From an uncultured delta proteobacterium (GTDB lineage: Bacteria > Desulfobacterota > Binatia > DP-6): a stretch of DNA of 64,000 bases. The stretch covers positions 1,856,001-1,920,000 of the forward strand of contig CAWFFN010000009.1 of assembly GCA_963815115.1 (NCBI GenBank). Direction: 5' to 3'. This document shows, piece after piece, positions 11,811-56,276 of this stretch. The translations under genes and the position numbers were made by a program. The notes beneath the pieces are model-generated. The model worked only from the letters and a program-made list of their open reading frames with translations. It searched no databases and was not told the origin of the DNA. Numbering within the stretch: the stretch's first letter is position 1; each line of letters starts with the position of its first letter.

Positions 11811-12218
11811 TCACCGGCAGTCCTGCCCGCCGAAGATGTTGGGCCGGCATGTCCGGGTCTTCCCGTTCGGGTACCTGAGGTCTCGCCCTCCGAAGATGTT
11901 CGGTACCGACTGCACGCGCCCGCCGTTCGGGAGCTGGTAGTCCTCGCCGCCGAGGACGTTGGGCGACGAGCGGGTCGTGCCTTCCCGGGTCCGGATGTCG
12001 TCGCCTCCGAAGATGTTCGGCTGCGAGGTCGAGCGCCTGCCGCCGGGACCCTCGGTGTCGACGCCCCCGAAGATGTTGGGCCTGGACGTGGAGCGTCCCC
12101 CGGGACCCTCGCAGTCCTGTCCCCCGAAGATGTTGGGGCGGCACGTGACCTGACCCGGCGCCGCCACCGGGACGGCGAGCAGCCCGAGCAGACCGGCGAG
12201 GACGAAGGCTCCCCTCAT
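11811..12218 (-). CDS. Secreted protein with six PN(I/V)(F/L)GG repeats
   Basis: Signal peptide; ~19-20 aa repeats; ATGA overlap with the WYL gene stop; GAGGAG RBS. Confidence 0.8.
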   Translation of the reverse strand: MRGAFVLAGLLGLLAVPVAAPGQVTCRPNIFGGQDCEGPGGRSTSRPNIFGGVDTEGPGGRRSTSQPNIFGGDDIRTREGTTRSSPNVLGGEDYQLPNGGRVQSVPNIFGGRDLRYPNGKTRTCRPNIFGGQDCR

Positions 12219-13224
12219 GTCTCCTCGTACAACCGCGCCGCGGCCCGCAGGTCACGTTCCACCCGCTCGCGCAGCGCGGCCGGCCGCAGGACCTTCACGT
12301 GCGGCCCGAAGCCCAGCACCCAGTTGGCCAGCTCCTCGGTTCCGCGCGCACGCATGGTGAGCAGCGTGGTGCCATCCTTCCGCTTCTGGAAGCGCTCCTC
12401 CAGGTTCAGGCGCCGGGCGCGCACCAGCGCCGCGGTCGCCGGGTCCATGAGCAGGAGCTCGACGCGTGTCTCCTCGCCGCGCATGATGCCGAAGACTCCC
12501 TGGAGGTGACGGCGCGGCGAGTAGCGTGCGGGATATTCGAAGCGCTCCGCCGTCAGCTCGACCGACCGGATGCGCTCGACCGCGAGGGTGATGATCTCGC
12601 CGTGGCGATCGCTGTGCCCGATCAGGTAGAGGCCGCCTCGATAGACGGCCAGCGTGTACGGGTCGAAGGCGTGAACCCGCGGCGCGCCGCCCGTCCCGGC
12701 GTACTCGACGCGCAGCCGGCGCTGCTTGATGAGGCCGTTCAGGATGCGGTCGACGGCGTCTTCGAGGTGGCGGTAGTGCTTCTCGATGAAGGGGATCGCG
12801 TGAAACTTGTCTCCGAGGGCTTCCAGCCGCGGCCGGTCCTCGGCACGGGCGCCCGATTCGAGCCGCTCGCAGGCGTCGTCCAGCAGCTGCTCCAGGACGG
12901 TTCCGCCCGCGAATGACAGCAGCGCGCGGGCGAGCCGGAGCGCCGCCACCTGGAAGACGGTCGATTCCCGATCCGGAGCACGCTGGACCAGGTGGATCAT
13001 GCGCCGGCCGCCCTGGCGGACGATCTCGATCCGGGGCCGTCCTGCCCGATCCGTGATGAAGTCGGTGCAGGCCTTCACGTAGCGCTCGACCGAGCGCTCC
13101 GAGACGTCGAGGTCGGCGGCGGCGGCCTCGAGGCTCCAGCCCAGGGGGCGATTGTACAGGCCGTCGACCAGCTGCGCGCAGCGCACGGCCGAGGCATGGG
13201 TCGCGGCGCCGCGCCTATCCCCAA
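12215..13224 (-). CDS. WYL-domain transcriptional regulator (wHTH-WYL-WCX; PafB/DriD-like)
   Basis: HTH AAADLDVSERSVERY; WYL core FDPYTLAVYRGGLYLIG...LAVERI; WCX WVLGFGPHVKVLRPAALR. Start uncertain: near the LGDRR codons (~13224) or ATG 13333. Confidence 0.9.
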
Positions 13225-13230
13225 GCGCCA

Positions 13231-13287
13231 GCAGGCGTTTCGGCGTGCGGACATCCGACAACGGTTGTCGCGGCACGGCGGTATCAA
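13231..13287 (+). promoter_or_regulatory. Putative WYL-regulated promoter/operator, copy 1
   Basis: GCAGGCGTTTCGGCGTGC-N7-CGACAACGGTTGTCGC-N10-TATCAA; palindrome at 13256-13270; near-identical copy at 51423-51479. Confidence 0.75.
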
Positions 13288-13331
13288 AGAGGAGTGCGAA
13301 GCGAGACGCAAGCCGAGGAAGGAGTCCACGC

Positions 13332-13511
13332 ATGAGCGGGGTGGTACACGCCCTCCGTCCGAGGGCACCCGAAGGGGGGCACCGTCGCCTCCGCCGCCCG
13401 GAGACGCCGGCGGCGCGACAGCAGCGGCGCCTGCGTCACCTCGATCGGATGAGGCAGTGGTACGCCACCCAGCTTCGCGGCGGAAAGCGAGACGACCATG
13501 TCACCGAATGA
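13332..13511 (+). CDS. Small basic hypothetical protein leading the DUF2130 operon
   Basis: AGGAAGGAG RBS before ATG 13332; 59 aa; stop overlaps the start of the DUF2130 gene. Confidence 0.4.
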   Translation: MSGVVHALRPRAPEGGHRRLRRPETPAARQQRRLRHLDRMRQWYATQLRGGKRDDHVTE

Positions 13512-14463
13512 GCACTGTCCGCTGTGCGGGCACGCGATCACGTCCGAGGAGCTGGCGGCGATCGAGACCCGGGTCCGCGAGGAGGAGCGTGCCCGCCAGC
13601 TGGCGAGCGAGGAAAAGGTCCGGCGCGAGCTGCGCGAGGAGCACGAGCGCGAGCTGGCGGCGCTGGCCGCGAGCCAGCGCGAGGCCCTGCAGGCGGACCA
13701 CGACCGGGCGCTGCTGAAGGCCCGGGCCGAGGCCAACCGCGAGAACGAGCGCCTCCAGAAGAAGACGAAGGAGCTCCAGCGCGCCCTCGAGAAGAAGACG
13801 GCGAACGACCTCGGCGACGGCCAGGAGCGGGACATCGAGGCCGACCTTCGCAGCGCGTTCATGCCCCCCGGCGGCGAGGACGCCATCCAGCGGGTCGCGC
13901 GCGGCGAGCTCGGCGCCGACATCCTGCACGACGTCCGCTACAAGGGCGTGACCTGCGGCCGGATCGTCTACGACTCCAAGAACCACAAGGCGTGGCGCAC
14001 CGACTTCGTGACCAAGCTCCGGCAGGACAGGGCACGGCACGACGCCGCGGCCGCCGTGCTCGTCACGACCGCCTTTCCCTCCGGCACGCGCTACTTCTGC
14101 GTCGACGGCGACGTCTGCATCGTCCACCCCGACGCCGTCGTCCACATCGCCGGCGTGCTGCGCCGGAGCCTGATCGCGCTCCACCGGCAAGGGCTCTCGC
14201 TGCAGGCCCGATCCGGCAAGATGGCCGCCCTCTACAGGTACCTCGCCTCGGGCGACTTCGCGGACCAGATCCGGACCGCCGAGACCCTGGTCGCCGACCT
14301 CCGCACACTCGACGCCCGCGAGCGCGACGCGCACGACAAGGTCTGGAAGGAGCGCGAGCGGCTGGTCACGCGCACGAAGGCGGCGATCGACGAGATCGAC
14401 ACCCAGATCACGGGTGTGATGGAGCGGGAGGACGGGGCGGAGCGGGAGGCGGCGGCGGGTTGA
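13498..14463 (+). CDS. DUF2130 family protein (Cys pair, coiled coil, restriction-endonuclease-like domain)
   Basis: N-terminal CPLCG; long E/R/K coiled coil; GELGADILHDV...IVYDSKNHKAW...KLRQD...AVLVT. Confidence 0.8.
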   Translation: MSPNEHCPLCGHAITSEELAAIETRVREEERARQLASEEKVRRELREEHERELAALAASQREALQADHDRALLKARAEANRENERLQKKTKELQRALEKKTANDLGDGQERDIEADLRSAFMPPGGEDAIQRVARGELGADILHDVRYKGVTCGRIVYDSKNHKAWRTDFVTKLRQDRARHDAAAAVLVTTAFPSGTRYFCVDGDVCIVHPDAVVHIAGVLRRSLIALHRQGLSLQARSGKMAALYRYLASGDFADQIRTAETLVADLRTLDARERDAHDKVWKERERLVTRTKAAIDEIDTQITGVMEREDGAEREAAAG

Positions 14464-14674
14464 GGGGGGACGGGCGAGGTGGTGCCCTTCTCATGACCCA
14501 CGAGAGGAGCCGCCTGTCGGGTTGCAGCTGGTGACGCGCCCGCGAGACGACGGCGGGCTGCTGCGTGCCGCCGCCAACTTCGAGCGCGCCCGACCCTGGG
14601 CGGATCGTCGTCCCGTGCCGTGAGCCGCCGTGCCCCCGAAGGCGGCGCCGTCGGAGAGCCGCCCAGGACCGAAG

Positions 14675-15181
14675 TCAAGGTCCGGACGCGGGACCGATCG
14701 TCCTTCTCAGGTACGCCGCGACGTCCGTCACGAAGCGGTGGACGGAAGCTTCCGCGATGCGATGACCGACGAGCGAGTCCATGGCGCTGCCCAGCAAGCC
14801 GAGCGGTGGCTCGTAGCGACCAGAGAAGTCGAGCTGAGTCTCGGTCGCGGTCAACGGGTAGATCGCGAGCTCCGCCCGCATGAACGGAAACAGGTGCGGT
14901 CGTTGGGCGGCCGTCCAGTCGAGCTGCAGGCAGGTCCGCGCCGGGGAAGTTGGCCCTCGCGGGTGTTCCTCGATCTCGTGGACCGAGATGTCGATCTCGG
15001 TGCCCATCTCGATGCCGCCGACGTCCACCCTGAGCTGCGACGCGACGGAGTGCGCGCGCGAGGCGGCCGCATGCGTCGCGGAGCGGAAGACCTCAGGGGC
15101 ATTCGCGGTCAGCGCATCGCGGACCTGCGCGTAGGGGTGGTTCACGTATTCGAAGCAGTGAATCGCTCGACCTTTGGTCAT
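14675..15181 (-). CDS. Hypothetical protein, possible SRPBCC/START-like fold
   Basis: ATG 15181; LFPFMRAELAIYPL..TQLDFSGRYEPPLG..G..D..VGHRIAEAS pattern. Confidence 0.7.
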   Translation of the reverse strand: MTKGRAIHCFEYVNHPYAQVRDALTANAPEVFRSATHAAASRAHSVASQLRVDVGGIEMGTEIDISVHEIEEHPRGPTSPARTCLQLDWTAAQRPHLFPFMRAELAIYPLTATETQLDFSGRYEPPLGLLGSAMDSLVGHRIAEASVHRFVTDVAAYLRRTIGPASGP

Positions 15182-15496
15182 CGGCTGCTCACGGGTTCGT
15201 CGCCGGAGTCCTGGTCCGGGCGAGCTGGGCGAACGCCTCGTCGACCATGCGCGGCATGCTCGACCTCCAGGGCTTCTCATGACAAGGGTCGGCGAGGGAA
15301 GCAACGGTGTCGTCGCCGGCGCCACGGCGGGGTCCTGACCGTTTCCGTCGATGGTCTGCACCCCGCCTGTTCGAGCGGCGGAGGGTCGCGAGTCGTTCCG
15401 GTGCCGGTGGCCGCCGAGCCGTAGGCCATTTCGATCGACATCCGTCACACCGTTCGGGTAAGCTCCATCTTCCATCGATCGCGGAGGACCTACCAA

Positions 15497-50558: not shown

Positions 50559-51314
50559 TCACGCCGGGCGGCGAACTCGCATGAGCAGAGCGATGCCGAT
50601 GCCCGCGAGTACGATGCAGCCGTATTGCGCCATCGTGAGCCCGAGGTAGCGGGCGTCGGCGCCCGGAAGGTCGCTCTGGCGCAGGAAGTCCAGAAGGAAG
50701 CGGGCCGGCGCATACAGGAGCGCGAGGACCGCGACGCTGGTGCCGGGCGGCCGGGGGCGGCGATTGAGAACGGCGACGGCCGGCACCAGGACGACGACCG
50801 TATAGAGGAGCTCGTAGAGTCCGAGGTCGTGGCGGGGGCCGTCGGGAAAACGGACCGCGAGCAGGAACTCGCTCGGTCTCCCGACGTGGTCGTGCACGAG
50901 CGTGCAGCCGAGCCGGCCGAAGACCCATCCGACGACGAGGCTCTGCGCGAGGAGGTCGGCCATCGGCAGCCACGAGCGCCGCGCGCGGCCGTAGTAGAGG
51001 GTGAGGCCGAGCAACGCCCCGGCGAGGCCACCGAACGAGCTCATCCCGTTCCAGAACTCGAGCAGCACCCGCGGGCGCCAGCCGCCGGTTCCTCCTGCCT
51101 GCAGCAGGGCGACCAGGTGCGACAGGACCAGCCCCGGCACGACCGCGCTCAGGATCGCGGCGGGGATCTCGCGTTCGGAAACGCGCATCCGGCGCGCGTG
51201 CCGTTCCGCGAACCACGCGCCGGCGAAGATGCCGAGCGCGACGAGGGTTCCGAAGGCGGAGAGCGAGCGGCCTCCGCCGAGCGGGATCTCGCGGAGCTCG
51301 AAGTAGGGGATCAT
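50559..51314 (-). CDS. lgt: Prolipoprotein diacylglyceryl transferase
   Basis: MIPY start; GMSSFGGLAG, FGRLGCTLVHDH.G, RHDLGLYE and RFLLDFLR..RYLGLT.AQY motifs. Confidence 0.85.
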   Translation of the reverse strand: MIPYFELREIPLGGGRSLSAFGTLVALGIFAGAWFAERHARRMRVSEREIPAAILSAVVPGLVLSHLVALLQAGGTGGWRPRVLLEFWNGMSSFGGLAGALLGLTLYYGRARRSWLPMADLLAQSLVVGWVFGRLGCTLVHDHVGRPSEFLLAVRFPDGPRHDLGLYELLYTVVVLVPAVAVLNRRPRPPGTSVAVLALLYAPARFLLDFLRQSDLPGADARYLGLTMAQYGCIVLAGIGIALLMRVRRPA

Positions 51315-51422
51315 GCGGCGAGAGGCAGGGCGCCGAACCATGCCCGGAAGTCTGCTAGCCCGGGCCGAAGCACTTTTAAAGCCAGCAGGAACGCGGCCAC
51401 TGCGCCCCAACCACGAGTTTCC

Positions 51423-51479
51423 GCAGGCGTTTCGCCGTGCTCTGCCTCGACAACGGTTGTCGCCGTGGGCGCGTATCAA
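51423..51479 (+). promoter_or_regulatory. Putative WYL-regulated promoter/operator, copy 2
   Basis: GCAGGCGTTTCGCCGTGC-N7-CGACAACGGTTGTCGC-N10-TATCAA; palindrome at 51448-51462. Confidence 0.75.
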
Positions 51480-51505
51480 TGGGATCAAGGAGGAACCTTC
51501 CATTG

Positions 51506-51829
51506 ATGTCGTGCGACGCCTTCATCGACCTGCTCCTCGAGCACTGGCCCCGGATCGCTTCCGTGGCGTGGGACGGCTGGCTGGTCCACGGCCGCGGCAC
51601 GGTGACGATCGAGGACGGGATCGTCCCCCTGGTCCTGGCCTACCGGCCGGGTGCTCCCTGCCCGTGCTGTGCCGGGGCGGTCGAAACCTACGATCCGGAG
51701 ACGCAGGCCGTGGTGGCCGTTCTGCGCGACGGCGGACGGGTCGGCTGGCTCCAGACGCTCGGCGGGGAGCCCACGCCCGCGGCGTCGGAAGCCTTCCCGC
51801 CGGCGGCCGGCGAGGTGACGGTGCACTGA
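51506..51829 (+). CDS. Small hypothetical protein coupled to DUF2779
   Basis: AAGGAGG RBS; 107 aa; HGRG.V, CPCC and V.TYDPE.Q.VV; TGATG overlap with the next gene. Confidence 0.65.
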   Translation: MSCDAFIDLLLEHWPRIASVAWDGWLVHGRGTVTIEDGIVPLVLAYRPGAPCPCCAGAVETYDPETQAVVAVLRDGGRVGWLQTLGGEPTPAASEAFPPAAGEVTVH

Positions 51830-53358
51830 TGCCGGCGACGTTGAGCAAGTCGAAGTATGTCGCAGGCCTCCAGTGCCCGCGCCGTCTCTGGCTCTCCCGC
51901 CACGCGCCGGAGCTCGGCACGCCTCCGACGGCGAGCCTCCTCGCCGTCTTCGACCAGGGCGCCGAGATCGGCCGGCGCGCGCGGGAACTGATCGCCGATG
52001 GCGTACTGGTCGACGAGGAAGCCTGGGAGCACGGCCAGGCGATGGCCCGCACCCGCCAGCTGATGGCCGACCACAACGTCGGCGCCATCTTCGAGGCCGC
52101 GTTCGAGCATGCCGGGGTGCGGGTCCGCGTCGATGTCCTCGAGCGCCTCGGCCCGCGAAGCTGGGGGATGCGCGAGGTGAAGCAGGGCTCGTCGGTAAAG
52201 GACCACTACCTGGACGACGCGGCGGTGCAGCGCTTCGTCGTCGAGGGGGCAGGGGTGCGACTGCGCTCGGTCGAGATCATGCACGTCTGTCGCGACTACG
52301 TCCGCGGCGACGACGGCATCGACTGGCGGCGGTTCTTCCGGTGCGCCGATGTGGCCGCGGAGACGGCGTCACTGCTTCCCGACGTACCGGCGCGGGTGCG
52401 GGACCTCCTGCGAGTGCTCCGGAAGCGCAGCGCGCCCGAGGTGGAGCCCTCGCCGCACTGCTCGGACCCGTACAAGTGCGAGTTCTGGGCTCACTGCACG
52501 GCCGCCAAGCCGGTCGACTGGGTCGTCGGCGGCCTACCCGGGCTGAATCGCGAGCGCCTCGAGGGGCTCCGTGCCGCCGGCGTCGAGCGCATCGGCGACA
52601 TTCCCGAGGAGTTCCGGCTCGGACCGGCCCAGGCTCGCACGCGCGCCGCCTGGCTGGCCGGCGGCCTCTACCTGGAGCCGGGGCTCGCGGCCGCGCTCCG
52701 GCGGACCGGGCCGCCCGCAGACTATCTCGACTTCGAGACCGCGTTCCCCGCGATCCCGCTCTACGCCGGCCTGCGGCCGTACGACCAGGTCCCGTTCCAG
52801 TGGTCGCTACACCGCGTGGACACGACCGGTCGCGTGCTGCACCGCGAGTTCCTGGCCGGTGGCCGCACGGATCCGCGGCCGGAGTTCGCGCGCACGCTGC
52901 TGGCTGCGCTCCGCCACCGTCGCGCGCCGATCCTCGTGTGGTCGGGCTTCGAGTCCAACCGGCTGGCAGATCTCGCCGCGACGCTGCCCGAGCATGCCGC
53001 CGATCTCGCCGCCGTACGGTCGCGGCTGGTCGACCTGCTTCCCATCGTGCGCGGGCACGTCGCCCACCCGGAGTTCGGCGGGTCGTTCGGGCTCAAGCAG
53101 GTGGCGCCCGTGCTCGCGCCATCGATCGGCTATGACGACCTCGGCGGCGTGAGCGACGGCGGCGAGGCATCGTCGGCGCTGGTCAGCCTCGCGCTGGGGG
53201 CGTCCGAGTCGGAAGAGGAAGAGGTTGCGCTGCGCCACGCGCTCCTCGAGTACTGCCGGCGAGACACGCTCGCGCTGGTGGAGGTGCATCGCGCGCTGGG
53301 GCGGCTGCGGCCGGGGCCCACGCAGGGCGTGATCAAGGGCACGGCCTTGGATGGGTAG
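51829..53358 (+). CDS. DUF2779 protein (Cas4/RecB-like PD-(D/E)xK N-terminus and RNase H-like C-terminus)
   Basis: LSKSKYVAGLQCPRRLWL; FEAAF..RVDVL..EVKQ; HC..PYKCEF..HC; YLDFET..PY.QVPFQWSLH; GSFGLK.V.P; YC.RDT. Confidence 0.87.
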   Translation: MPATLSKSKYVAGLQCPRRLWLSRHAPELGTPPTASLLAVFDQGAEIGRRARELIADGVLVDEEAWEHGQAMARTRQLMADHNVGAIFEAAFEHAGVRVRVDVLERLGPRSWGMREVKQGSSVKDHYLDDAAVQRFVVEGAGVRLRSVEIMHVCRDYVRGDDGIDWRRFFRCADVAAETASLLPDVPARVRDLLRVLRKRSAPEVEPSPHCSDPYKCEFWAHCTAAKPVDWVVGGLPGLNRERLEGLRAAGVERIGDIPEEFRLGPAQARTRAAWLAGGLYLEPGLAAALRRTGPPADYLDFETAFPAIPLYAGLRPYDQVPFQWSLHRVDTTGRVLHREFLAGGRTDPRPEFARTLLAALRHRRAPILVWSGFESNRLADLAATLPEHAADLAAVRSRLVDLLPIVRGHVAHPEFGGSFGLKQVAPVLAPSIGYDDLGGVSDGGEASSALVSLALGASESEEEEVALRHALLEYCRRDTLALVEVHRALGRLRPGPTQGVIKGTALDG

Positions 53359-54617: not shown

Positions 54618-55001
54618 TCAGGTGAAATCGTCGGGCGACAGCTCAATTGGCCTGCCGTGCGGCGTGCGGCCGGCGGCGCGGTCCCAGGCGTCGCGGTAGC
54701 GCGCTAGCGTCTCTCCGCTCACGACTCCCTTCTCCGCCACCAGGCGTTCGAGGGTAGCGAGCCAGTGCCGGTAGTAGGTCTCGCCGATATCCGGATCGCC
54801 GGCAGCCTGCGCACGCTTGATCTCGTCTGCCAGGGTCGCTGCCCACTCGCTCCACGTGAAGAGGCCACGCTGATGCAGAGTCAGCGCCATGGCGAAGGCC
54901 TGCGCCTCCCACGGCTCGCGGAACACCGGCCCCTGCTCGTCGCGCGGGATGCTGGGGACGGCCTCGGTGGCGCGGCGCGCCGCGGCCGGATCGAGCGTCA
55001 T
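54618..55001 (-). CDS. Nitrile hydratase accessory (activator) protein
   Basis: GPVFREPWEAQAFAM..GLFTWSEW..YYRHWLATLE..TPHG; follows the beta subunit gene. Confidence 0.9.
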   Translation of the reverse strand: MTLDPAAARRATEAVPSIPRDEQGPVFREPWEAQAFAMALTLHQRGLFTWSEWAATLADEIKRAQAAGDPDIGETYYRHWLATLERLVAEKGVVSGETLARYRDAWDRAAGRTPHGRPIELSPDDFT

Positions 55002-55002
55002 G

Positions 55003-55659
55003 TCAGGTTAGCTCCAGGTACGGCTCGAAGGCCTCGACCGATACCGTAAGGGTCGGGTCGGCATTCGCCCCCCAGAGCTGGCGGCCGTCGAACACCACGG
55101 TGTAGAGCCACTGTGGATTCTCGCCCCCGCCGGTCGTGACGGAGTCAGGGAAAACATGGCAACCGCGGATCGCCTCGATCACCCCTTCACGGCCACGCGC
55201 GTAGCGCGGCAGGCGCGTGTGGCTCGGCGGGTTGATGTTCTTCGTGCGCACCCGGTCGCCCGGCTTGAACCGGGCCTGCTGGCCGGGCGGGCGGCTGAAG
55301 GAGCCGCGCGTGAACGCGTGGCCGATATCGTTCTTCGTCATGACCCGCTCGACGCGCTTGCCCGGACGGAGGGCGTGGCCTGCGGCGATCTCATCGGCAT
55401 CGATCAGCCCTTGCTCGAGGGCGTTGCGCTCCATTCCCAGGGCCCACCGATGATAGTAGGTCGCCGAGAGGTAGACGCCGGCGGGCAGCCGTTCCTGCGC
55501 GTCGCGCGACATGTCGATGTTCCACGCGCGCGTGAACCTCATGGCCCGCTGCATGGCCAGCACGCGCCCCTCCCAGGGGGCGTGGAACGGGGGCTCGTTC
55601 GGGTCGGGCTCGACCTTGCCGAACCCGTGCATGCCCCCCACGTCGTGCACGCCGTTCAC
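55003..55659 (-). CDS. nthB: Nitrile hydratase beta subunit
   Basis: GTG start [13 protein letters not shown]; FHAPWEGR; [10 protein letters not shown]; HVFPDS; LYTVVF..LWG; FEPYLE. Confidence 0.93.
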
Positions 55660-56276
55660 GACGAGATCTCCCCGGGCCGCCTGGGCAGACCGGTGCCGAT
55701 CATGCAGTCGCGAGTGACGAGGGAGGCCAGGCGCTCCTCGCTCCAACCCTCGGTGCCGGCCGGGCGCAGCGGCACCACGATGAAGCGGGTCTCGGCGGTC
55801 GAGTCCCACACGCGGATATCGGTGTTCGCCGGCAGCGTGACGCCGAAGTCGGCGAGCACGCCGCGCGGGTCCATGACGGCGCGCGAGCGGTAGGGCGCCG
55901 ACTTGTACCAGACCGGGGGCAGGCCGAGCACCTCCCACGGGTAGCAGGAGCACAGCGTGCAGACGACCATGTTATAGCGCCCGGGCGTGTTCTCGACCGC
56001 GATCAGGTGGTCGCCCACGCGTCCGAATACGCCGAGCGCAGCGATCGCCCTCGTCGCATCCGCCAGCAGCGCGACCTTGAACTCGGGATCGACCCAGGCC
56101 CTAGCGATGACGCGAGCCCCGATGTGGGGGCCAGTCTTGGTCTGGTAGTGCTCGACGATGAGGTCGAGGACGGCCGGATCGACGTAGCCCTTCTCGGTCA
56201 GGATGGTCTCCAGGGCGCGCACCCGGAGCTCCGTCTCCGACAGCTCGGAGCCGTGGTCGTAGTCGGCCGTGCTCAT
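55656..56276 (-). CDS. nthA: Cobalt-type nitrile hydratase alpha subunit
   Basis: [10 protein letters not shown] (Co-type signature); [14 protein letters not shown]; VWDSTAE. Confidence 0.95.

Follow-up and report, generated by a model that had tools for sequence, protein, structure and literature searches.

Two 57-base sites in the window (the whole 64-kb stretch of DNA analyzed here) are, on balance, probably a pair of DriD-like promoters of the activator type that depend on a WYL-domain regulator. We favor this reading because of the operator that both sites carry, the link to the sole WYL gene of the genome, the missing −35 element, the fixed spacing to a −10-like hexamer, and the repair-type targets of related sites in other genomes. 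Binding, activation, and the signal are parts of the reading that we infer from sequence and from analogy with characterized regulators.

In the mechanism that we propose, a dimer of the WYL protein would bind the palindrome CGACA-N5-TGTCG through residues R32 and R36 of its recognition helix. The palindrome would occupy the place of a −35 element, its proximal GTC lying 12 nt from the weak −10 hexamer TATCAA, and the bound protein would substitute for the missing −35 contact, as at DriD and PafBC promoters, thereby recruiting RNA polymerase. Transcription would then proceed into a DUF2130 gene from site 1 and into a small gene, X, and the adjoining DUF2779 gene (X-DUF2779) from site 2. As trigger, the WYL-WCX portion of the protein would most likely sense a cue from DNA damage or foreign DNA. 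A further upstream block, box 1, would serve as a genus-specific auxiliary element, either as an alpha-CTD/UP-like contact or as the site of a second factor.

Architecture and rarity of the two sites

The three-block architecture described in the initial annotation can be read directly from the sequence at 13231-13287 (site 1) and 51423-51479 (site 2). Each site comprises an 18-nt box 1, a 7-nt spacer, the palindrome CGACAAC-G-GTTGTCG plus a C, a 10-nt spacer, and the hexamer TATCAA. Site 1 reads GCAGGCGTTTCGGCGTGC-N7-CGACAACGGTTGTCGC-N10-TATCAA. Its box 1 (GCAGGCGTTTCGGCGTGC) occupies 13231-13248 on the plus strand, 8 nt upstream of the palindrome and at approximately −63 to −46 from the inferred start; the candidate operator palindrome follows at 13256-13270, and the −10-like hexamer lies at 13282-13287 on the plus strand, 12 nt after GTC, with an inferred transcription start at ~13294. 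Site 2 has the same layout with a single G to C change, located in box 1 (51423-51440, plus strand). Its palindrome (51448-51462) is an exact copy of the first, and its hexamer TATCAA (51474-51479, plus strand) precedes an inferred start at ~51486.

The blocks of the two sites are identical at 39 of 40 positions (box 1, 17/18; palindrome with its C, 16/16; hexamer, 6/6), whereas the spacers agree at 3 of 17 (0/7 and 3/10), which is the level expected at random (Fisher test of blocks against spacers, p = 1.2e-9). The 40-nt flanks are likewise at random level, with 13/40 and 9/40 identical positions (22/80 in total). Because the blocks were kept while the spacers diverged, selection appears to have acted on the blocks. 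The initial annotation had proposed such selection in place of a recent duplication. Its first half stands; its second does not, as repeated duplications of the cassette took place in the genus (see below), and the history should read, judging from the sequences, as duplication followed by selection on the blocks.

To place these sites in their genomic background, we scanned the source genome (G000; 6,891,854 bases, 70% G+C) for the motifs with mismatches allowed. Within the window, the two sites are the only zero-mismatch matches to the palindrome or to box 1. At up to three mismatches, the window holds four palindrome matches against 3.79 expected and two box 1 matches against 0.53 expected; these counts are near chance, and we therefore gave weight only to exact or near-exact matches. 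Across the genome, nine strand-matches to the palindrome were found at up to two mismatches, of which four represent the two sites and the other five carry two mismatches. Box 1 gave 73 matches at up to three mismatches, with zero mismatches only at the two sites and two to three in the rest. At up to one mismatch, copies of either block are thus confined to the two sites. A looser scan, which accepted the 13-mer with up to three mismatches, its proximal half with up to one, and TA...[TA] 11-13 nt further on, returned 15 matches in the genome and 23 in the reversed genome, with fewer than two mismatches only at the two sites. The 13 other matches, all with two to three mismatches, reveal no further target above this reversed-genome background (23), and the upstream regions of rmuC and lexA in the source genome contain no box within four mismatches. 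The motif could have been scattered in the manner of a REP element, a concern raised at the outset. Such scatter is ruled out because only two near-exact copies exist in the 6.9-Mb genome, and both lie upstream of genes.

No canonical sigma-70 −35/−10 pair was found around site 1 (13150-13520) or site 2 (51300-51560). We examined the distance between operator and hexamer in a pool of 42 distinct exact sites, drawn from loci that were chosen by palindrome or WYL neighbor and never by their −10. In this pool, 14 of 84 orientation reads have TAnnnT at offset 12 after GTC, and no other offset between 0 and 39 has more than four. The relaxed hexamer [TC]AnnnT occurs 21 times at offset 12 and at most five times at other offsets. 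At offsets 11-13, the latter hexamer is present at 26 of the 42 sites; the seven sites of the source genus, whose hexamers end in A, are outside these 26. The lack of the usual final −10 T in TATCAA counts against the activator reading.

The WYL regulator and its characterized relatives

Site 1 lies divergent from a gene on the minus strand (12215-13189) that encodes a 324-aa regulator with the domain order wHTH-WYL-WCX (Pfam: WYL, 1.1e-12; WCX, 1.8e-17). This gene is the sole PF13280 match in the source genome. It starts with GTG at 13189, and its frame is open up to an ATG at 13333. Alignments with homologs begin at residue 1-3 of the 324-aa protein, and the WYL genes of two congeners, G003 and G004, have an ATG or GTG approximately eight codons further upstream; the exact start, as judged from sequence, is uncertain by up to 10 codons. 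Since homologs start at the position of GTG 13189, or some eight codons above it in G003 and G004, the site 1 motif falls outside the WYL gene. We also asked whether box 1 might belong to the WYL coding sequence or to the promoter of that gene and rejected this, because box 1 is kept at three sites with no WYL gene alongside (site 2 of the source genome and the second cassettes of G001 and G003). After the WYL gene and in short overlap with it, a conserved secreted protein of ~146 aa is encoded at 11811-12251 on the minus strand, in the source genome as in G001 and G004; it contains PNIFGG(Q/x)D repeats with flanking cysteines, and a Pfam search returned no family for it.

WYL activators, among them PafBC, DriD, DdaA, and SiwR, increasingly stand out as the main alternative to LexA in DNA-damage sensing. 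LexA is also encoded in the source genome. The best PDB sequence match of the WYL protein is PafBC (6sj9, E 1.7e-7); its similarity to DriD (8tp8/9pfq) spans the full length and is weak (E ~1e-6). In the protein atlas, it falls in generic WYL clusters only. All 16 aligned family members have two arginines in the helix-turn-helix, R32 and R36 (324-aa form), which are the counterparts of DriD R37/R41 in the alignment and, being four residues apart (i, i+4), resemble the pairs PafB R46/R50 and SiwR R38/R42. The tyrosines equivalent to Y168 and Y192 are kept in the family as well. At strand beta3, the R-x-[FW]-R of PafBC and DriD is replaced by I-x-L-A, as seen in two independent HMMER alignments, and a LAVER motif at this strand is invariant in all 16 aligned members. 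The residues affected are those that contact ssDNA or are essential in DriD (R204, W206), SiwR (R204, R207), and PafBC. Because these sensor arginines are replaced family-wide, the ssDNA signal is not simply transferable to this protein, which counts against the activator reading.

We compared the sites with those of characterized regulators as described in the available portions of the cited papers. A resemblance of the palindrome to the DriD core and to the PafBC spacing had been noted before, and both likenesses were upheld: CGACAACGGTTGTCG matches CGAC-N7-GTCG, and GTC lies 12 nt before the hexamer. DriD of Caulobacter crescentus binds ATACGAC(N7)GTCGTAT, and CGNC(N7)GNCG occurs in 68 of 69 driD promoters (PMC10853764). 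Its sites cover the −35 position, always equally far from the −10, in promoters without a −35, and a site adjoining driD drives the opposite operon (PMC13004042). In the three promoter oligos of the DriD cryo-EM work, our own count puts G(T/G)C 12 nt ahead of a hexamer that starts with CA, the choice of hexamer being ours (PMC13004042). The DriD regulon includes nuclease and repair genes.

The regulator studied here shares with DriD, a homodimeric wHTH-WYL-WCX activator of an SOS-independent damage response, the same order of domains and, as candidate operator, CGAC-N7-GTCG, here even as CGACA-N5-TGTCG, the form present in the crystallized DriD site. In both cases, the operator is in a divergent promoter beside the regulator's own gene and lies over the −35 position, at a fixed distance to the −10 and without a −35 hexamer. 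The two proteins differ in that they are only ~20% identical and that DriD R204, W206, and R207 align to I, L, and A. In addition, the center of the palindrome is GC-rich here (ACGGT) and mostly AT-rich in the DriD sites described, and the source genome presents an extra box 1, only two promoters, and DUF2130 and X-DUF2779 as outputs.

The promoters of mycobacterial PafBC, a case of sigma adaptation at the −26 element, follow tGTCgg(N10)tA(N3)T, with 12 nt after GTC, which is read by PafB R46 and R50 (PMC8635444). The GTC and the spacing to the tA of the −10 match those found here, as does the lack of a −35; the final position of the hexamer is A in the source genus and T in other families. 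However, PafBC is portrayed as a heterodimer of two WYL paralogs that recognizes a non-palindromic half-site with one HTH on the DNA and the other on sigma, that needs RNA polymerase to bind, and that controls ~150 genes, in contrast to the one WYL gene, the full palindrome, and the two promoters of the source genome. DdaA of Acinetobacter binds CGACAATATGTGTCG (PMC13010146) and is described as a WYL activator with a CGACA-N5-TGTCG site, a predicted homodimeric state, and a repair regulon. This likeness is one of site and description rather than of aligned proteins, and the DdaA site at aciT differs in being located ~160 bp upstream of the gene. SiwR of Mycobacterium smegmatis is a homodimer that binds a palindrome between −10 and −35 and needs HTH R38/R42 and WYL R204/R207 (PMC10693628). 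As reported, it is an activator divergent from a small local regulon, with an imperfect palindrome and i/i+4 HTH arginines, and in these respects resembles the regulator as proposed here; it differs in its DinB-like targets and in its essential R204/R207, which are absent here.

No known WYL promoter has an equivalent of box 1. The DriD complexes are described as placing the alpha-CTD at about the position equivalent to box 1 (~−46 to −63), and by this analogy the coincidence in location is a lead rather than a finding. In the literature searched, beyond the supplementary regulon tables of the DriD, PafBC, and DdaA papers, we did not find WYL mentioned together with DUF2130 or DUF2779. The papers found that combine the WYL domain and DNA damage with Myxococc- deal with other regulators, going by their titles and the opening lines of their abstracts.

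The cassette in the genus and the palindrome across the class

The three-block cassette has seven copies in the genus, in which all three blocks are preserved and the spacers vary; box 1 is present in all seven, with variable spacers on both sides. In the source genome, the first copy is upstream of the DUF2130 gene and the second upstream of X-DUF2779. G001 has one between its WYL gene and a small ORF, B1, and another 463 bp after the first, upstream of B2-X-DUF2779. In G003, a copy lies between the WYL gene and a membrane kinase-like gene and a further copy upstream of the DUF2130 gene of a second locus, and the single copy of G004 lies between the WYL gene and ORF A-X-DUF2779. Four cassettes have 12 nt between GTC and the hexamer and three have 13 nt, and the hexamers read TATCAA, TATTCA, TATTAA, or CATCAA. 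The initial annotation had made its proposal depend on the promoters of orthologous genes in relatives. Indeed, among the five genomes of the genus, the cassette is upstream of every DUF2130 gene (G000 and G003; 2/2) and every DUF2779 gene (G000, G001, and G004; 3/3) that we found.

The congeners G001, G003, and G004 have both the WYL gene and the cassette. In G002 (94% complete), the WYL gene, DUF2130, DUF2779, and the cassette were all not found, and one isolated 13-mer occurs in another context. In the second cassettes of G001 (a tandem copy) and G003, 15-25 nt of additional flanking sequence come from the WYL side, and we therefore conclude that the cassette spreads by duplication. The WYL-side cassette of G003 faces a membrane protein gene (L082:8842-10152, minus strand) whose product is histidine-kinase-like in its C-terminal half, and not a nuclease gene; no DUF2779 gene was found in G003 with the query used. 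The DUF2779 matches of G001 (L073/L080; G001:C13:630939-632455) come in two overlapping pieces in different frames, which points to a frameshift or an assembly error. Among other DUF2779 homologs (L074, L076, and L077), those of G013 and G006 contain one in-frame TGA each and that of G030 one TAG.

We then surveyed 201 genomes of the class, including the unpublished genome G102, for WYL homologs at E<=1e-30. Such homologs are present in 67 of the 201 genomes and share 33-49% identity outside the genus. A palindrome within three mismatches of GACAACNGTTGTC is located no more than 260 nt upstream of 17 of the 30 homologs examined, and these 17 belong to six families (f1, f5, f6, f9, f10, and f11). 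No palindrome was found near the remaining 13, nine of which are f10/f11 loci with the gene behind another gene. Among the 13 are also the closest homologs outside the genus (48% identity, f10), whose gene is in an operon; these 13 count against the activator reading. Box 1 was seen in none of the upstream regions of WYL homologs examined outside the genus.

The exact 13-mer GACAACSGTTGTC occurs at 97 sites in 32 of the 201 genomes, compared with eight sites in six genomes for a reversed-pattern control. Of the genomes with an exact 13-mer, 21/32 are WYL-positive, as are 17/18 of those with two or more sites. Conversely, the exact 13-mer is absent from 46 of the 67 WYL-positive genomes, which counts against the activator reading. 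Since the genomes of one class are kin, these tallies describe the association and do not test it.

The targets in relatives include the repair and nuclease genes recC and rmuC; weaker cases are dnaB and the genes for an AddB-like protein, a UvrD-like helicase, and a protein with a Cas3-like C-terminal domain. The WYL gene of f9 and recC (Exonuc_V_gamma, 5.8e-56) are direct divergent neighbors, and the hexamer at offset 12 reads TATGTT or TAGGTT. A palindrome site was found at rmuC in two species, at an AddB-like 501-aa gene in two species (without a clear −10), and 257 nt from dnaB in one species. In G032, which has 15 sites, 11 were examined; the downstream genes encode a UvrD-like helicase, a protein with a Cas3-like C-terminal domain, and UPF0182, and also adenylosuccinate lyase, an aminotransferase, and a PAS kinase. 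Such metabolic targets count against the activator reading. Upstream of five DUF2779 homologs outside the genus, we found one locus with a two-mismatch match, three with three-mismatch matches only, and one with none, and hence no convincing box.

Genus g30 of f9 contains repeated units of ~200-260 nt, five to six per genome (L085, L088, L090, L091, and L094 in G116; L096 in G187; from approximately position 1600). Each unit starts with the WYL palindrome, followed after 12 nt by CATAAT, and is conserved both in its 5' part, ACAAAyCATGAA..CCTCAACC, and at its 3' end, AGAAGACGGAATTCG...TTTAGAACAATGTT. A search of these ~200-nt units against Rfam gave no family match; they may represent a WYL-controlled family of small RNAs or small genes. 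In soil, peat, and sediment metagenomes, DNA of the source lineage is present in small shares, at most 0.13; no RNA run was among the sequencing runs listed.

Putative target genes, competing explanations, and significance

Site 1 had been placed between the WYL gene and an operon of a small ORF and DUF2130. The WYL and DUF2130 genes are confirmed as its neighbors, and the small ORF is not conserved. This candidate (13332-13511, 59 aa) was rejected because its indels relative to the leader of the G003 paralog are not multiples of three, and the ~200 nt before the DUF2130 gene are therefore better termed a leader (13294-13497, plus strand). The leader, aligned with that of the G003 paralog, has a hairpin, TGCG-N8-CGCA, near its 5' end, the arms of which are kept in four of five site-1-type cassettes with varying loops. 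Just past the inferred start, at 13296-13320 and at the same place in L083, L081, and L084, the sequence is GAGTGCG-N8-CGCAAGC; its arms TGCG/CGCA can pair, its loop varies between genomes, and it is absent from site 2 of the source genome and from the second cassette of G001.

The DUF2130 gene (13498-14463, plus strand; Pfam 1.2e-28) encodes a Zn-ribbon-like CxxC, a long coiled coil, and a PD-(D/E)XK-like domain. In a structure model built from 87 sequences (pLDDT 92.6), a CxxC knuckle and a helix of ~85 residues accompany an alpha/beta domain at residues 100-254. A Foldseek search with the model gave no match at E<=0.001 (best E 4e-3). When re-aligned with VIA, residues 100-254 scored Z 8-10.5 against Can2, McrC, BsaWI, Hjc, and other PD-(D/E)XK nucleases; each of D128, D141, and K161 is at least 96% conserved in the 87 homologs. 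On the strength of the VIA re-alignment, the modeled domain looks like a restriction-endonuclease-like (PD-(D/E)XK) fold, and we regard its nuclease role as putative. A PDB sequence search with the DUF2130 protein gave chance-level matches only, and BLASTP found no significant similarity to an RmuC from G116. The ~960 bases past the gene (14464-15424) contain no ORF with the codon-position G+C usual for the genome and no terminator-like site.

Site 2 is flanked by lgt (minus strand; Pfam LGT) on one side and gene X on the other. The small-ORF/DUF2779 operon proposed to follow this site proved correct: the small ORF, gene X (51506-51829, plus strand; 107 aa), is real, with coding-like GC3, lies directly before the DUF2779 gene, and is conserved in that position in G001 and G004. 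Its stop overlaps the DUF2779 start (TGATG), and it has no family, with no match in Pfam, NCBIfam, or PADLOC. The DUF2779 gene (51829-53358, plus strand; 509 aa; Pfam 1.1e-32) encodes a RecB/Cas4-like N-terminal nuclease domain and the DUF2779 domain. Residues 14-257 match the RecB-like putative nuclease model TIGR03491 at 2.8e-15, below the curated cut-off, and a Cas4 model weakly (0.0015); a PDB sequence search gave 0 matches. From sequence comparison and modeling, both outputs of the source genome thus look like nucleases. Two neighboring genes past the DUF2779 operon (54618-55953, minus strand) encode nitrile hydratase beta-subunit domains and are unrelated to the sites discussed here. Contigs C6 and C7 of the source genome share identical stretches at similar offsets (C6:2297/C7:2688; C6:13398/C7:13796), and C6 probably repeats the start of C7, as an assembly duplicate or a real repeat.

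Could the WYL protein instead be a repressor of the CapW/BrxR type, occupying the core promoters of two nucleases that might harm the cell itself and released by a signal? The palindrome does overlap the core promoter region, and the sensor pocket is unlike that of the activators. As described in part of the literature, WYL repressors of the same domain order control nuclease or defense genes and sense ssDNA; like the system studied here, they have palindromic operators and neighbors that cut nucleic acids. Both outputs are nuclease-like, and gene X could be a partner or inhibitor. However, CapW and BrxR repress functional promoters of recognized defense systems, and here neither such a system nor a canonical promoter was found: PADLOC recognized no defense system around either site and returned only generic WYL profiles and weak Cas4 and coiled-coil matches. 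Furthermore, lacking a −35 hexamer and having only a weak −10, the sites would offer a repressor little basal activity to silence. The activators PafBC and DriD show the same rigid 12-nt distance to the −10, and the targets in relatives (recC, rmuC) resemble activator regulons. We consider repression an unlikely alternative, albeit the strongest of those weighed.

The blocks might also be read mainly by another transcription factor or an alternative sigma factor that recognizes box 1 and the hexamer, the adjacency of the WYL gene being historical. Such a reader would account for a box 1 that is conserved as much as the palindrome and unmatched in known WYL promoters, for a hexamer that is atypical as a housekeeping −10, and for a cassette that has moved by duplication. 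Yet it is the palindrome, not box 1, that is kept beside WYL homologs in other families; its sequence is that of the DriD/DdaA box, and genomes with multiple sites are nearly always WYL-positive (17/18), which makes this explanation highly improbable. A non-regulatory repeat, whether left behind by duplication or formed by a small mobile or REP-like element, fits the several copies in the genus and the extra WYL-side flank of two of them, and is barely credible given only two copies in 6.9 Mb that are always intergenic and point toward a gene, blocks that are kept amid randomized spacers, and a palindrome conserved at a distance of 40-50% protein identity.

Under the preferred reading of a WYL-dependent activator, the operator CGACA-N5-TGTCG and the GTC-N12 spacing to the −10 are extended to an uncultured soil lineage, and the shared spacing suggests one conserved mode of RNA polymerase docking across very distant phyla. 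DUF2130, a coiled-coil PD-(D/E)XK protein, and the RecB/Cas4-like DUF2779 with its small partner X would thereby gain a regulatory context. The type of damage switch is known; the departures here are the sensor residues, the extra box 1, and the outputs. A bolder proposal, which we advance only tentatively and hold to be rather doubtful, is that the class-wide WYL family keeps the DNA-reading head and promoter geometry of DriD and PafBC, has exchanged the ssDNA-binding arginines for hydrophobic residues, and answers a different ligand or partner, with box 1 as a second input in a portable cassette that was copied before nuclease operons. If true, this ligand or partner would differ from that of every characterized WYL regulator, and box 1 would be an equally constrained second input, making a two-input cassette ahead of different nuclease operons. 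Both the absence of the sensor arginines and the presence of box 1 set this case apart from the known WYL model in a concrete way that can be tested.
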